Shown: positions 12,620-16,700 of the stretch, piece after piece
How positions within the stretch are numbered: the stretch's first letter is position 1
Layout: each line of letters opens with the position of its first letter
Source: Candidatus Kaiserbacteria bacterium
GTDB lineage: Bacteria; Patescibacteriota; Minisyncoccia; Phycocordibacterales; UBA918
DNA: 35,558 bases
Direction of reading: 5' to 3'
NCBI GenBank assembly: GCA_031423775.1
Contig: JANPGF010000038.1
Coordinates: 1-35,558 of the forward strand
The notes under the pieces: model-generated
The model's input: the letters and a program-made list of their open reading frames with translations, nothing else
Database searches by the model: none
What the model was told of the DNA's origin: nothing
Program-made: the position numbers and the translations under genes

Positions 12620-13837
12620 CTACTGACAGGTTCCCACAGTTGCAGTAATAGTTCCCAGATGAGTAAATATCTTACGATGAATCGAACCATTTCCATCTTG
12701 TTGCCAATTATTTTCGACACTAACGGTTTGTGGCCCAACCCCCGGCTTTACGATAAATCCTCTACGATGCCCCCATAACCAATGATCACCGCCTGTAATA
12801 CTGTGTGTCATGAAGTAATCCACAAAGGCTGGCCCTTGCACTGCATAATCTGACTCATTCCAATACCCAACTGCTGTATTTGTATTATCGTCATAGTCTT
12901 GGCGTACATAGAGCAGATCACCACCAGTAAACTTGGCGTCACGATACGTATAATTTACATCTGTCCAAGCACCAACACCTATCAGAGCACCTTTGGGAAC
13001 TTGGATAGTGACTGTTTTAGTCATATTAAAGGCTTCCCGGGCCTGATATCCAGTATTATAAATATCACCTTTAATTGTGACCGCACATAAACTAGGGGTA
13101 GGTTTTGTTGAGAGGCACGTACAAATTGGACGATGATTGTAATCCGAGGATATTTCAGAATCCTTACACGCATTTGCGTCACTGCTCACCATCGGCTGAC
13201 CTGAAGCATTACAGCTAGTCAAGTAATCTCCCGCATTACAACTACATGCCGCACCTGATACATTACGAGTATTATTCAGCGTTGAATAGGTATGAATCGC
13301 TGATAAGTCGGTCTCGGACGAAACTGGATCCGAAGGATCGAAACAATTATCACCATTTTTATCACAGTAGTTATTCGCCCGTATACTATTTGAAAATTGC
13401 GCATAATCACTAGCACCATTACCACCTGCATGTAATTCTAAAATTGCATTGCTATTATTCCATACCGAACCGTTATTATCGCGATCATATAGAAATTTCA
13501 TTGTTGATATACCTGGCGTCTCAACAACAGCTGCAGTCACCCACCGAGGGACTGCCGTGTCTGAATTAACATAAACCACAAGAGGTTTATCCCCAAATAA
13601 TCCGAGTGTATTACCAATCCCCAAACTGCCGATTTTAGTTTGTGTACTCGACCCTACGTTTAATGGTGCTGCAACATTATTCTGTGGAGGAACGCTCCCG
13701 CTTTCAGGCGGAAACCAGACACTTTCATCATAGGCTTTGATAAAACTGTAGCTCGAAAAGCCGACAAGGATAATCCCAACACACAGACCATAGATAATGT
13801 TTTTAGAAGAATTCATAAAATGAGTTAATGAACTCAT
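12620..13837 (-). CDS. Secreted Cys-containing surface protein
   Basis: N-terminal hydrophobic segment, PP.NNVAAPLNVGSSTQTK.G.L motif, YCDKNGDNC and a Cys-rich central part. Confidence 0.75.
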   Translation of the reverse strand: MSSLTHFMNSSKNIIYGLCVGIILVGFSSYSFIKAYDESVWFPPESGSVPPQNNVAAPLNVGSSTQTKIGSLGIGNTLGLFGDKPLVVYVNSDTAVPRWVTAAVVETPGISTMKFLYDRDNNGSVWNNSNAILELHAGGNGASDYAQFSNSIRANNYCDKNGDNCFDPSDPVSSETDLSAIHTYSTLNNTRNVSGAACSCNAGDYLTSCNASGQPMVSSDANACKDSEISSDYNHRPICTCLSTKPTPSLCAVTIKGDIYNTGYQAREAFNMTKTVTIQVPKGALIGVGAWTDVNYTYRDAKFTGGDLLYVRQDYDDNTNTAVGYWNESDYAVQGPAFVDYFMTHSITGGDHWLWGHRRGFIVKPGVGPQTVSVENNWQQDGNGSIHRKIFTHLGTITATVGTCQ

Positions 13838-13908
13838 TGTAGGAGCCTATTACACTTATTGCTACTCTTTTTACCCACAACAGTCTATATTTTGGTTTTA
13901 TGGTAATG

Positions 13909-13936
13909 TTGTAAACTGTCTCTACTGTGGTATAGT
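13909..13936 (+). promoter_or_regulatory. Sigma70-type promoter of the tRNA locus
   Basis: TTGTAA-16 nt-TATAGT with extended -10 TG at 13928-13929. Confidence 0.6.
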
Positions 13937-13973
13937 GCAGGAACTTTTTTGTAATACAGAAAGGTTACCAGAT

Positions 13974-14037
13974 ACGCCTATAGCTCAGCCGGTAGGTAAA
14001 ACAGTCTCCCAGACTGTTTTACCCCTTAATTAAGGAG
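13974..14037 (+). repeat. tRNA-Lys 5'-half pseudo-copy 1 with inserted hairpin
   Basis: 13974-13995 matches tRNA 14152-14173 at 21/22. Then a 13-bp perfect stem (13995-14023) and the remnant TTAAGGAG. Confidence 0.85.
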
Positions 14038-14063
14038 CTTAGTCAAAACACAATTTAATATAT

Positions 14064-14137
14064 GCGGCTATAGCTCACCTCGGTCCGCGCAAACTGCATC
14101 CTATGCACTTTGCCCTTATTAACGAGAAGCGTCCGCA
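14064..14137 (+). repeat. tRNA-Lys 5'-half pseudo-copy 2 with inserted hairpin
   Basis: GCGGCTATAGCTCA matches the tRNA start at 13/14. Hairpin GCAAA-C-TGCAT/ATGCA-C-TTTGC, then remnant CCCTTATTAACGAGAAGCGTCC versus tRNA CCCTTTTAAGGAGAAGGTCC. Confidence 0.75.
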
Positions 14138-14151
14138 CATAACACATACAT

Positions 14152-14224
14152 GCGCCTATAGCTCAGCCGGTAGAGCAGCTCCCTTTTAAGGAGAAGGTCC
14201 CAGGTTCGATCCCTGGTGGGCGCA
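14152..14224 (+). tRNA. tRNA-Lys (anticodon TTT), CCA not encoded
   Basis: Acceptor GCGCCTA/TGGGCGC, D-arm GCTC/GAGC, anticodon loop CTTTTAA, T-arm CCAGG-TTCGATC-CCTGG and discriminator A. 73 nt. Confidence 0.97.
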
Positions 14225-14231
14225 CTCGAGC

Positions 14232-14275
14232 AAACAAAAACACAACACCTTATATAAGGTGTTGTGTTTTTGTTT
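14232..14275. terminator. Long terminator-like palindrome after the tRNA
   Basis: AAACAAAAACACAACACCTTA-TA-TAAGGTGTTGTGTTTTTGTTT. Confidence 0.75.
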
Positions 14276-14358
14276 AGTAAGTGACCTGCGTCACTTACGG
14301 GCTCGAGTGCGAGACGGAGTCATGTTTTCTTCTCCTCCCTAGAGGAGAAAACGGACGA

Positions 14359-14427
14359 GTCGGGGTCGCGGGTACTTAGTATAAATATGAACATAGTGAA
14401 ATATTTTACTTAGTAACCCGTGACCAC
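14359..14427 (+). repeat. Structured repeat copy A (GTCGGGGTCG...GTGACCAC)
   Basis: 69 nt. Stem GGTCGCGGGT/ACCCGTGACC and ACTTAGTA/TACTTAGT. Preceded by AGACG and a TTTTCT...AGAAAA hairpin. Confidence 0.85.
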
Positions 14428-14493
14428 AAGTGCGCCCTTACTCGTACGATATGACACCCGTACCGTTCCATCCCGTCGCGGGTGTCACATGTA

Positions 14494-14520
14494 ACCTGAA
14501 CAGGCAAGACCTGTTCAGGT
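14494..14520. repeat. REP-like hairpin copy 1
   Basis: ACCTGAACAGG-CAAGA-CCTGTTCAGGT. The 23-nt core is identical to 16196-16218. Confidence 0.8.
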
Positions 14521-14554
14521 ATGTTTCTGTCCTCCTTAAGGACAGAAACCGCGG

Positions 14555-14624
14555 GTCGGGGTCGACAGCACTTACTAGAATTGGAGCCGCAGTCGAACAA
14601 TTATAGTTAGTGACTGGTGACCAC
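14555..14624 (+). repeat. Structured repeat copy B
   Basis: 70 nt with the same ends as copy A. Shares the 18-nt ACTTACTAGAATTGGAGC with copy C. Preceded by hairpin TTTCTGTCCT/AGGACAGAAA. Confidence 0.85.
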
Positions 14625-14651
14625 CACGTGCCCCTTTACTATACTTTACCC

Positions 14652-14958
14652 ATGTCTCTCACTTCCGACAAATACCGAGAAGCTCGTGGCGGTTATTCCA
14701 GCACGCATACCATCACTTGCGAAAAATGTGATTTATTTATCTGCAACTACCAAAAGGACGGCCCCCGGGAATCTCCGCCGTATGTACATCGATAGAATCA
14801 CATCACCTTCTGTCTCTATTTCTAAAAAGGAACTACTCTGCCCACAAGGTCATCTACTTGGTATTAAAATCAACTACGAAAAAGAAGACCGTCCGGCTTA
14901 CCGTCTATTTGTCGACGCTGTCGTAAAAATAGTGACTTCATCCAAAAAAGTTCGGTAA
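14652..14958 (+). pseudogene. Small putative Zn-ribbon protein split by a +1 frameshift in a C5 run
   Basis: One frame reads MSLTSDKYREARGGYS...CEKC...YQKDGP and the next reads GNLRRMYIDRI...CPQGH...RLFVDAVVKIV. Removing one C at 14762-14766 gives a 101-aa protein. Confidence 0.75.
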
Positions 14959-14977
14959 GTGTCTCGCGATGGGGCAC
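14944..14977 (+). repeat. 34-nt tRNA-3'-end-like direct repeat, copy 1
   Basis: AAAAAAGTTCGGTAAGTGTCTCGCGATGGGGCAC, 29/34 identical to 16125-16158. Confidence 0.8.
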
Positions 14978-15022
14978 TAAATACCAGCACTAAAGCATTC
15001 GCTTTGGGGCTGGTATTTAGTA

Positions 15023-15041
15023 GCGCCCACCAGGGATCGAA
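15023..15041 (-). repeat. Inverted exact copy of the tRNA-Lys 3' end (19 nt)
   Basis: GCGCCCACCAGGGATCGAA is the reverse complement of 14205-14223. Confidence 0.92.
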
Positions 15042-15073
15042 AGACGCAAGCCGGGGTCCCTCTGGGCCGGCAC

Positions 15074-15141
15074 GTCGGGGTCGCGAGTACTTACTAGAAT
15101 TGGAGCGTAGCGCCTGATTATACTTAGTGATTTGTGACCAC
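15074..15141 (+). repeat. Structured repeat copy C
   Basis: 68 nt. Stem GGTCGCGAGT/ATTTGTGACC with three G-T pairs. Preceded by AGACG at 15042 and a GCCGG...CCGGC hairpin. Confidence 0.85.
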
Positions 15142-15194
15142 AGACACAGCAATTTTTAATGATACAATCATAGTTGAATTTAATTTAATAAAAT

Positions 15195-15983
15195 ATGAAC
15201 CGCAATATTTCTACAACGGTTGGATTGATAATTATATCTTTGATGGCGCTCGGTGTTGGTTATGTTGTATTCCAATCTGGAAAAAATGCTGAGAATAACG
15301 TCTCAACAATTTTACCAACTCAACCGGTTGAAACGAAAAAAGCAACAACAAGCCCCGCAGATCCAACACCTACTAAATCAGTGATCACTTTACGAAAGGA
15401 TTATGTCTGTCCTGATATTACTAACGATTTAACTATGGGTTCGGTTGATGAAAAAATAAACGGCCCGGAGTATTTCAAGGGACAAGTTTCTAATCTCCAA
15501 ACCTTCTTCGTGCAATACTTTTCAATTACTGACTCCAATTTTGTTGATGGTATTTTTGGTCCGATCACTGAAAAGTACGTGCAGCAATTCCAAGCAGCTG
15601 AGAAGCTTTCCGCCACCGGTAAAGTAGATACGATTACTCGCTCTCATATCTTAGCCCTATGTACCGCAACTGCTATTCCTATACAAAATATAAAAATCCT
15701 TCCTAATTCATTACCTTCATCAATTACTCTAGATCCATTACAAGGATTACAAGAAAGTGGAAATCTGACGAAGGGAGGATTCAGAATCGAATATCTTAAC
15801 AAAGATACTCATACCATTCGAGTGACTGGGCGGACGATATTAGGCATCGGTACTCAAACAATCTCACTGAACGAAAAACCGATAATTACAAATAACTGGC
15901 CACTTGCTTTGGAAATAAGCTTCCAGAAAGTAAACGCTGACGGCTCAATCAGTCTTGATCTCAAGACAGTTTCCACTGATTAA
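15195..15983 (+). CDS. Membrane-anchored protein with a peptidoglycan-binding (PG_binding_1-like) domain
   Basis: N-terminal TM, T/P-rich linker, and VSNLQ...DGIFGPITEKYVQQFQ....L..TGKVD..T. Confidence 0.85.
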   Translation: MNRNISTTVGLIIISLMALGVGYVVFQSGKNAENNVSTILPTQPVETKKATTSPADPTPTKSVITLRKDYVCPDITNDLTMGSVDEKINGPEYFKGQVSNLQTFFVQYFSITDSNFVDGIFGPITEKYVQQFQAAEKLSATGKVDTITRSHILALCTATAIPIQNIKILPNSLPSSITLDPLQGLQESGNLTKGGFRIEYLNKDTHTIRVTGRTILGIGTQTISLNEKPIITNNWPLALEISFQKVNADGSISLDLKTVSTD

Positions 15984-16124
15984 AACTTCGTTATGGGTTA
16001 GAGACCTCTTGTTTTGTCTTTTATTGCTCACTCAAAGTCATAGTTAGTAGTTATACTCTAAACAACCGCCGATACATTTCGACAACAATCGCTTTTGACT
16101 CTTAACTCCAACCATTTCCCCCAA

Positions 16125-16158
16125 AAAAAAGTTCGGTGAGCATCTCGCAATGGCGCAC
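16125..16158 (+). repeat. 34-nt tRNA-3'-end-like direct repeat, copy 2
   Basis: AAAAAAGTTCGGTGAGCATCTCGCAATGGCGCAC, followed by a terminator-like hairpin AAAAACCTCCC-TTCG-GGGTGGTTTTT. Confidence 0.8.
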
Positions 16159-16190
16159 AAACAAAAAACCTCCCTTCGGGGTGGTTTTTA

Positions 16191-16223
16191 TTAATCTGAA
16201 CAGGCAAGACCTGTTCAGATTAA
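16191..16223. repeat. REP-like hairpin copy 2
   Basis: TTAATCTGAACAGG-CAAGA-CCTGTTCAGATTAA (14-bp stem). Confidence 0.8.
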
Positions 16224-16247
16224 CTAATTTCTACTTTTGCTTATATA

Positions 16248-16700
16248 TCAAATGCAGCTTCCTTTTTTCTGTTCCTCCTTTACAAAGCCAAATTTTCTAT
16301 AAAAATTCTGGGCCTTCACATTCGCCTCATGTACTTCCAACAAAATTGGTACACCTATCTCACTTGATTCGTGGATCAGATCTGTAAGTATCGCTGTTCC
16401 AATACCTCTGTTTTGAAATTCTGGCAAAATTTGAATACCTCCTACATACAGTGATTCGAGCGACCTCACAATTCGCAAACGTCCAATATCGACTCCCTTA
16501 TATTGAATGATTTCTATCTCTGTCGGTACAAACTTCTCTTGATAGGCCCTAAATTCAGTTTCACTATCAAAGAACCTGCCAGGATGCAAGGCCTCAACTA
16601 CTGGACGCATAGCATCTGTAGAGACGCGAAATAAAAAGGCCACGTCTTCTGCAGTTGCTTGACGTAACGTGTAATCAACCTGCAGGAGCTCTGTGTCCAT
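16248..16700 (-). CDS. GNAT family N-acetyltransferase
   Basis: LRQAT.ED, IQILPEFQNRGIG (motif A) and N..AQNFYRKFGF. Confidence 0.92.
   Translation of the reverse strand: MDTELLQVDYTLRQATAEDVAFLFRVSTDAMRPVVEALHPGRFFDSETEFRAYQEKFVPTEIEIIQYKGVDIGRLRIVRSLESLYVGGIQILPEFQNRGIGTAILTDLIHESSEIGVPILLEVHEANVKAQNFYRKFGFVKEEQKKGSCI

Follow-up and report, generated by a model that had tools for sequence, protein, structure and literature searches.

A two-hairpin module behind tRNA-Lys and other gene 3′ ends in Patescibacteria, a candidate gene-end insertion cassette

The window analysed here is a stretch of 35,558 nucleotides (nt), positions 1 to 35,558 of the forward strand of contig JANPGF010000038.1, from a Candidatus Kaiserbacteria bacterium (GenBank assembly GCA_031423775.1; genome G000 below, 1.24 Mb in 105 contigs, 87% complete). 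In the window, a tRNA-Lys(UUU) gene anchors by its 3′ end an array of three copies of a structured module, with a 101-codon open reading frame (ORF) between copies 2 and 3 and a 262-codon ORF behind copy 3 (Table 1). We find that the module is a two-hairpin structure whose base pairs covary, that it recurs at the 3′ ends of tRNA and other genes in related genomes, and that it is flanked by inverted and direct copies of the gene end. It may mark a small insertion cassette.

A sequence-only reading of the window had pointed to three hairpin repeats of about 69 nt, and these are present where it placed them. The pattern GTCGGGGTCG-N(45-60)-GTGACCAC matches the window three times, always on the + strand (the H4 hairpins in Table 1), and 0 of 100 dinucleotide-preserving shuffles give any match. 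Each repeat is a long hairpin whose fold is more stable on the + strand (minimum free energies of −31.5, −31.6 and −25.7 kcal/mol for copies 1, 2 and 3; z −4.2, −3.1 and −1.3) than on the − strand (−24.7, −27.4 and −16.6 kcal/mol; z −3.8, −1.8 and +0.8). The covarying outer stem and the inner pseudo-stem with an offset base that had been proposed are both seen: the outer stem reads GGG/CCC, CAG/CUG and GAG/UUU in the three copies, and the inner stem ACUUAnUA/UAnUUAGU has one covarying pair (G-C, C-G or U-A) and retains one U·U mismatch. A hairpin of unrelated sequence also precedes each of the three copies, as had been noted (H3 in Table 1).

The hairpin is real, but the unit is larger than the ~69 nt first assigned to it. 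Alignment of 23 copies from G000 places the start of the conserved element ~48 nt 5′ of the repeat, giving a ~115-nt module of which the repeat is one arm. In the other arm, P2, helix a (3-4 bp) and helix b (3 bp) are separated by an internal loop that has G-SA 5′ and GA 3′, and helix b is followed by AUG and the variable hairpin H3. The repeat itself, H4, has a GGUC/GACC base, a near-invariant G·U that closes the outer stem, a stem with one U·U mismatch, and a covarying 2-bp stem that closes a GA...GAA loop. Its ends had been described as fixed, which holds for GGGGUCG and GUGACC, the end consensus of 76 copies, and fails for the first GUC and last AC, which vary in other copies.

RNAalifold found compensatory changes in 15 of 28 pairs among the 23 copies. 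From these we made a covariance model, R1 (113 positions, 28 pairs; its E-values are rough), to which 76 copies from 14 genomes were aligned. In this alignment 95.7% of cells are paired, a value that drops to 29-41% when partner columns are slid by 1-3. Both sides change in 26 of the 28 pairs and double-change cells number 390, compared with 110 in shuffles; 0 of 500 shuffles reach the observed values. An alignment fitted to R1 favours structure, but the effect size far exceeds that bias. The earlier view that structure is kept over sequence is thus borne out, and covariation is strong in the larger alignment. Pairs of the G-U and U-G type outnumber A-C and C-A 49 to 14 at the modelled positions, agreeing with the suggestion that such pairs favour the + strand; given this excess, the + strand, which is that of the upstream gene, is the folded strand of the module. 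Because structure is conserved over sequence and the folded strand is the + strand, a single-stranded RNA or DNA role is likely, as the sequence-only reading had argued. With its ties to gene ends, multi-copy spread and inverted and direct flanking copies, the unit looks more like an insertion cassette than like a local RNA gene standing on its own.

The module has no counterpart among described RNA families that we could find. A gathering-level scan of the whole window against Rfam 15 returned only the tRNA-Lys gene, and in E-value mode no match from 13800-16400 or from 7 related loci overlapped the module; sub-threshold matches fell on terminator hairpins. Neither the repeats nor their surroundings gave a match to an Rfam family. 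An intrinsic terminator alone was considered and set aside: T1, the palindrome ahead of copy 1, fits one, but in the module there is no U run, and its two hairpins covary and its internal loops are conserved. Readings as a self-cleaving ribozyme, a retron, a tmRNA-like RNA or a T-box were dropped since there was no motif or Rfam signal for them.

Module copies are found where genes end. In G000, 11 of 36 tRNA genes have an H4 start 112-130 nt downstream on the same strand, and extra copies follow tRNAs as second or third units. In the near-complete genomes G007, G004 and G006, 42 of 59 R1 matches lie no more than 400 nt 3′ of a same-strand tRNA and 33 no more than 120 nt, the usual gap between tRNA and module being 82-87 nt. 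The best 12 loci of a search of the genus and order have a tRNA directly upstream in 9 cases, and the best 9 loci from other families of the class all follow a tRNA or, at L093, tmRNA. Copies not associated with tRNAs also occupy 3′ ends of conserved genes, namely those of ftsZ (G004, G006, G007), clpP, rplE, the tmRNA gene beside smpB, and rplL (G007 and contig C65 of G000).

The number of copies in G000 depends on the search: 5 by the exact pattern, 21 by a looser core pattern, 34 by nhmmer at E<1e-4 (40 at E≤1), and 35 by R1 (25 under stricter filters). Several of them lie at contig ends. All other genomes were sampled. R1 matches 23 of 24 sampled genomes of the genus and 11 of 16 from other families of the order (35 of 41 genomes in the genus-and-order search), 36 of 150 other genomes sampled from the class, and 5 of 150 in a phylum-wide draw, 4 of them outside the class, all weak. 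Matching genomes in the genus-and-order search have 1-35 copies, most genomes of the genus having 3-26. One member of the genus, G014, has zero R1 copies at 97% completeness.

The covariation and the placement together raise the possibility that the module is a structured 3′-end RNA that serves the host in processing, stability or termination, the gene-end copies being by-products of the RNA's origin. The strong RNA-type covariation and the G-U bias on the coding strand fit such a role, as does the finding that the module is always co-oriented with the upstream gene and is conserved across an order. In addition, the ftsZ and clpP modules lie between stop codon and terminator and are thus predicted to be transcribed in the 3′ untranslated region (UTR). 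A host function would not lead one to expect that only about one third of tRNAs are occupied (39 of 121 in G007, G004 and G006), that a near-complete genome of the genus (G014) has no copy, that unlike units stand in tandem at one tRNA, or that after tRNAs the module lies behind a strong terminator-like hairpin, and it leaves the spare gene-end copies unexplained. We consider this explanation unlikely.

The gene-end copies follow a regular plan. The 12-13 nt 5′ of the module, called A′, repeat in reverse-complement form the end of the upstream gene, A1. T1, a terminator-like palindrome of free sequence, and the CUGC-loop hairpin H2 separate A1 from A′, and in short forms both are replaced by a single hairpin. 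We separated two layouts by eye. In class I the match of A′ covers the 3′-terminal 4-5 nt of the tRNA and ~7 nt of its trailer; in class II, H2 interrupts the complement, which extends via the acceptor 3′ strand and T-stem into the T-loop. At copy 1 of the window, the final 11 nt of A′ are exactly complementary, in reverse, to the tRNA-Lys end and its trailer (CGCACTCGAGC, 14221-14231), and at copy 3, A′ is perfectly complementary to the acceptor 3′ strand, T-stem and T-loop (14205-14223). Many units also have, 3′ of GUGAC, a direct copy of the gene end, A2, followed by a different trailer and a terminator; in G004 such a copy spans 19 nt of tRNA-Gly(UCC), and in G006 one of 22 nt comes from tRNA-Thr. 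Direct repeats of 16-24 nt occur among the units.

We counted these relations in the 86 units with enough flank, taking exact matches only, which undercounts diverged repeats. With a minimum length of 8 nt, A′ has an upstream complement in 64 units (9.7% of re-paired controls), 26 units contain a direct repeat (3.3%), and A′ pairs with the 3′ flank in 19 (1.1%). Positions where the acceptor stem has a G·U pair tell which strand A′ was matched to: in 8 cases A′ has the sequence complementary to the 3′ strand, in 1 it has that of the 5′ strand itself, and in this single exception A′ matches A2 instead. The A′ of copy 3 in the window reads GCGCCCA, the complement of the 3′ strand, whereas the 5′ strand of tRNA-Lys differs (GCGCCTA). 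With 8 informative cases against 1, we rejected the reading of A′ as a remnant of the 5′ half of the tRNA itself.

At protein-coding genes the direct copy preserves the reading of the gene end. The A2 of ftsZ re-encodes PAFLRRSKLK* and that of clpP re-encodes VDKIYK*, both with synonymous differences, and the A2 of rplL on contig C65 re-encodes GAKITLK*. A terminator lies 3′ of A2 in each of the three cases. Re-encoded ends with a terminator behind them indicate an insert within the gene's last codons that supplies a replacement end. The left arms of the junctions, compared by eye, have no common core sequence of the protein-recognized type. As a separate observation, other structured modules can fill the slot between A′ and the spare tRNA end (L034 1617-1830, L039 160-250, L038 1130-1200 and loci in G004); one such type is ~75 nt long and ends in GUAC plus a small hairpin ...GUUUCGA, and variants with GCAAGAC loops also occur.

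The module and its variable 12-13-nt segment could also form a guide scaffold, of RNA or single-stranded DNA, that would pair with the gene end and so program a nuclease or recombinase to act there; the IS110 bridge RNA, the TnpB omega RNA and the exon- and intron-binding sites (EBS/IBS) of group II introns are analogues. The segment, at a fixed distance between H2 and the module, complements the target in 64 of 86 units, it matches the complement of the tRNA 3′ strand and not the 5′ strand in 8 informative cases against 1, the left arms examined by eye share no protein-type core, and one scaffold serves many targets. The pairing itself, however, is of another character than that of the module. 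In 43 tRNA-adjacent units the A1/A′ helices are 8-25 nt long and near-perfectly Watson-Crick, with 16 mismatches in total, and they show no G-U bias (7 vs 6), so they resemble copied DNA more than an RNA helix under selection. No TnpB (PF07282; IscB was outside the search) and no IS110 (PF01548) matched in the 87%-complete G000, whose single reverse transcriptase, with a YRDD motif and adjoining an ATPase, looks like a defence gene. We know of no guided system that duplicates its target in both orientations, as is seen here. A guide scaffold of this kind is, on balance, rather improbable. A specific form of the idea, in which module and segment act as an address label by which a gene-less cassette writes itself into conserved gene ends, guided by RNA or single-stranded DNA and using a host or unrecognised enzyme, is offered as a doubtful but consequential possibility.

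Comparison of the tRNA-Lys(UUU) locus among genomes that share its downstream gene (44% identity between G000 and G007) suggests that units come and go. The content after the tRNA differs, with 0-3 units of differing types. G014 has a plain trailer and no unit; G007 has one class I unit and then a remnant of another module type; G004 and G006 have short forms; in G002 there are two class II units that differ in T1, H2 and module and are each bounded by CCTGGAGGGCGGA; G019 has a different module together with an R1 module; and G000, the window, has three R1 modules and two ORFs. Unlike units are therefore stacked in tandem at a single tRNA.

The similarity among copies tells little of where they sit. 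Mean identity between modules is 0.70 within genomes and 0.68 between them, and the nearest neighbour is in the same genome for 25 of 76 copies (14.3 expected). We used nearest-neighbour counts in place of a tree by tRNA identity: the nearest foreign neighbour shares the target tRNA in 8 of 50 cases, against 3.0 with shuffled labels, the maximum of 500 shuffles being 8. The similar identity within and between genomes, with the weak tracking of targets, points to an old and diverse family whose modules are exchanged among targets. Reads gave one trace of a change within a population: in run X2 one contig joins 14225 to 14444, omitting copy 1 between two ACTCG repeats, which is a weak hint because the shorter side has just 26 nt. 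Joints 14428->14307 and 14469->15119, from fragmentary unitigs of runs X1-X3, look repeat-induced and were discarded. Three stretches that lack cover in X2 (the bins at 13902-14035, 14304-14437 and 15376-15777) do not enter the argument.

Direct repeats from T-loop to 3′ end are the classic attL/attR picture of integrase islands at tRNAs, and the units could be junction scars or cis-mobilizable remnants of such islands, the module being part of the attP arm of larger elements such as those with large serine recombinases. The tmRNA gene is targeted as well, and in G000 large serine recombinase genes abut tRNA-His and tRNA-Val(UAC), with an 11-kb island between tRNA-His and three modules that tRNA-His 3′ halves flank. 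A double-stranded attP arm, however, would not give strand-biased, RNA-like covariation, serine integrases need no long identity block, and most units are ~200 nt long without cargo. The enzymes do not follow the module either. Serine recombinases are encoded in 22 of 35 module-positive genomes, leaving 13 without, and in 4 of 6 module-negative ones, and most genomes have a single Xer-like tyrosine recombinase match. G000 has two Xer-sized tyrosine recombinases (PF00589), neither beside an array (within an assembly 87% complete), one of which has close orthologues in 7 of 40 relatives. Across 41 genomes no tyrosine or serine recombinase co-occurs with the module. A LAGLIDADG-like family found ahead of tRNAs does not track the module either: 29 of the 35 genomes with the module have it, as do 3 of the 6 without. 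We regard an origin as integrase scars as very unlikely.

Our preferred explanation, to which we give a probability of roughly 0.5, is that these units are non-autonomous gene-end insertion cassettes with the folded module as their cis site. Such a cassette would enter the end of a conserved gene and bring a replacement end, so that the gene stays intact. The order in a full cassette is A (the last 5-40 nt of the conserved gene), a trailer usually with T1, H2, A′, the module, a second A and the old trailer. Its target would be picked via base pairing or homology of A and A′ with the gene end and not through a core read by a protein, and the folded + strand of the module would be a cis-acting site read by machinery encoded elsewhere. 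Larger versions would include a cargo of one or a few genes, examples being the ORFs between copies 2 and 3 and beyond in the window. Spare gene ends, new terminators, unlike units stacked in tandem and an unoccupied site in G014 argue for insertion into a gene end; the folded single strand and target choice by pairing or homology are argued from the strand-biased covariation, the inverted copy at fixed distance and the coreless left arms. The enzyme, the moving form (RNA, single-stranded DNA or a double-stranded DNA circle) and the role of A′ are inferences.

Several points weigh against an insertion cassette. The role of A′ is putative, and no enzyme is tied to the element among those searched (tyrosine and serine recombinases, TnpB, IS110, reverse transcriptase and the LAGLIDADG-like family). 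No free or circular form was seen; two IUPAC patterns had 0 matches in IMG/VR and blastn against phage records had 0 matches. The population evidence for gain or loss is the one short contig joint, a weak hint. Judged from sequence similarity, which hardly tracks the tRNA, a model with one lineage per target would need frequent swapping of modules. Conservation of the module across an order and its placement in 3′ UTRs would suit a host RNA function as well.

We compared the units with known systems by description. Integron attC arrays share with them a strand-specific structured site with its fold conserved more than its sequence, inverse and direct core copies that flank a variable structure, and co-oriented small cargo genes between sites; empty or tiny cassettes exist there too. 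The sequence-only reading had concluded that the repeats are not canonical integron sites and this holds, since the module ends GGGGUCG ... GUGACC are without the RYYYAAC/GTTRRRY cores of attC. Moreover, the "core" of the module is the end of the targeted gene and is locus-specific, the module sequence itself is well conserved, and arrays are attached to tRNA, tmRNA and protein-gene ends and not to attI. No IntI was found: G000, at 87% completeness, has the two Xer-sized PF00589 proteins, and IntI-specific features were outside the search.

Integrative elements that target tRNA and tmRNA genes were reportedly sorted by Williams in 2002 into T-loop and 3′-end sublocations. With these elements and their integrase-less remnants (cis-mobilizable elements, CIMEs) the units share a direct repeat of the tRNA 3′ part that brackets the insert (the 26 of 86 units, against 3.3%), a new gene 3′ end and terminator supplied by the insert, and the use of tmRNA. 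They differ in being ~200 nt long and protein-less, in having an extra inverted target copy and a conserved folded module, and in that no integrase co-occurs with them in the 41 genomes. A spare protein-gene end, here of ftsZ, clpP and rplL, is also carried by e14 and phage 21 in icd and by mobile endonuclease ORFs of fungal mitochondria, but those encode an integrase or homing endonuclease and the module units encode nothing. As in the folded single-strand attP of CTX-phi, which uses Xer, the two inverted target copies ~50-90 nt apart could fold into a mimic of the target duplex, and module genomes encode little besides an Xer-like recombinase; dif is not what the units target, however, and there is no phage genome. 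The IS110 bridge RNA and TnpB omega RNA share a scaffold with a variable target-matching segment, while repetitive extragenic palindromes and bacterial interspersed mosaic elements (REP/BIME) and class C group II introns at terminators are likewise multi-copy and lie at 3′ ends of transcription units. Compared with these, the module has no Rfam match and its possible TnpB or IS110 partners were not found in G000, and none of these systems is known to duplicate the gene end in both orientations. No system in this comparison is known to combine all features of the units. A full-text literature search, at the level of result listings, gave no description of such an element, and none is named in the term-matched passages of bioRxiv 10.64898/2026.10.21.760802.

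The genomes of Patescibacteria are tiny, and few mobile elements can be recognised in them. Should the cassettes be mobile, they would be a main route of gene gain at tRNA loci in the phylum and would represent a new mode of targeting, by gene-end mimicry with an inverted copy. If the address-label idea is true, the cassettes would be guided mobile elements of a new class, and Patescibacteria would have a natural means of stacking cargo genes behind tRNAs. If the module is instead a host RNA, it would be a large unannotated RNA family tied to tRNA and mRNA 3′ ends. The module deserves a family model under either reading, and it accounts for many contig breaks and "pseudo-tRNA" fragments in the Patescibacteria assemblies examined.

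Table 1. Features of the tRNA-Lys(UUU) locus in the window
Feature	Position	Strand	Basis
tRNA-Lys(UUU)	14152..14224	+	Rfam tRNA 68 bits; ARAGORN
T1, terminator-like perfect 22+22-nt palindrome with A-run and T-run	14232..14275	+	inverted repeat I1, 100% complementary
H2, 9-bp hairpin with CUGC loop, 12-13 nt 5′ of the module	14277..14298	+	read from sequence
A′, GGGCTCGAGTGCG	14299..14311	+	11-nt exact match
Module copy 1 (H3 14325-14352; H4 14359-14427)	14311..14427	+	R1 108.3 bits, E 6e-22; fold; pair counts
Hairpin CTGAACAGG-CAAGA-CCTGTTCAG, GCAAGAC-type loop	14497..14518	+	repeats D2, I2, I8; repeated at 16196-16218
Module copy 2 (H3 14523-14549; H4 14555-14624), followed by the 101-codon ORF	14506..14624	+	R1 91.4 bits
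Cargo-like ORF, 101 aa, between copies 2 and 3	14653..14958	+	no Pfam family
21-bp hairpin 3′ of the 101-codon ORF, in T1 position	14976..15021	+	inverted repeat I4
A′ of copy 3, 19 nt	15023..15041	+	inverted repeat I3, 100%
Module copy 3 (H3 15049-15070; H4 15074-15141)	15041..15141	+	R1 75.9 bits
Cargo-like ORF, 262 aa, peptidoglycan-binding domain, 3′ of copy 3	15195..15983	+	Pfam PG_binding_1, E 1e-8
Mosaic remnant	16125..16222	+	repeats D4, D2

Within the window array, T1 stands between the tRNA-Lys trailer and the trailer's complement, a slot in which other units hold an unrelated hairpin, and CUGC-loop hairpins with a covarying stem occupy the place of H2 in most listed units. Copy 1 contains, in order, helix a, a GGA/GA internal loop, helix b, AUG, H3 and H4. 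Modules 1 and 2 are separated by a hairpin-rich stretch that includes the GCAAGAC-loop hairpin, and such loops recur in module variants on contigs C45, C76, C84 and C103. Both ORFs share the orientation of the modules, as in a cassette array. The last bases of the 101-codon ORF, together with the start of the next hairpin, recur at 16125, in the mosaic remnant, whose pieces are 84% and 77% identical to 14944-14980 and 14471-14518; this suggests an older rearranged unit 3′ of the second ORF. A GNAT gene and then the conserved downstream gene follow the remnant.

Other features of G000 lie at tRNA genes. Its large serine recombinases, of 536 and 559 aa (C15:13915-15525, L101; C81:274-1950, L102), are convergent with, and overlap the 3′ ends of, tRNA-His and tRNA-Val(UAC), a layout that recurs by coordinates in G004 and G006. 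An island of ~14 kb 3′ of tRNA-His (C15:13945-28100) holds the reverse transcriptase and ATPase and ends in three module copies, with a diverged tRNA-His 3′ half after each and co-oriented small ORFs between them. Members of a family of ORFs with helix-turn-helix (HTH) and LAGLIDADG-like domains end just before tRNA genes (C11:34849-35727, C11:43822-44505, C39:1203-1844 and C76:20936-21661), and 2 of these 4 tRNAs carry a module. Finally, the real tRNA-Lys gene is directly preceded by two partial copies of its 5′ part (window 13975-14149), the first of which has a hairpin GTAAAACAGT...ACTGTTTTAC inserted after the D-arm. G000 has just one more hairpin of this type, within a partial 5′ copy that precedes tRNA-Leu(UAG) on contig C19, and these hairpins may represent a second type of insertion, at tRNA 5′ ends.

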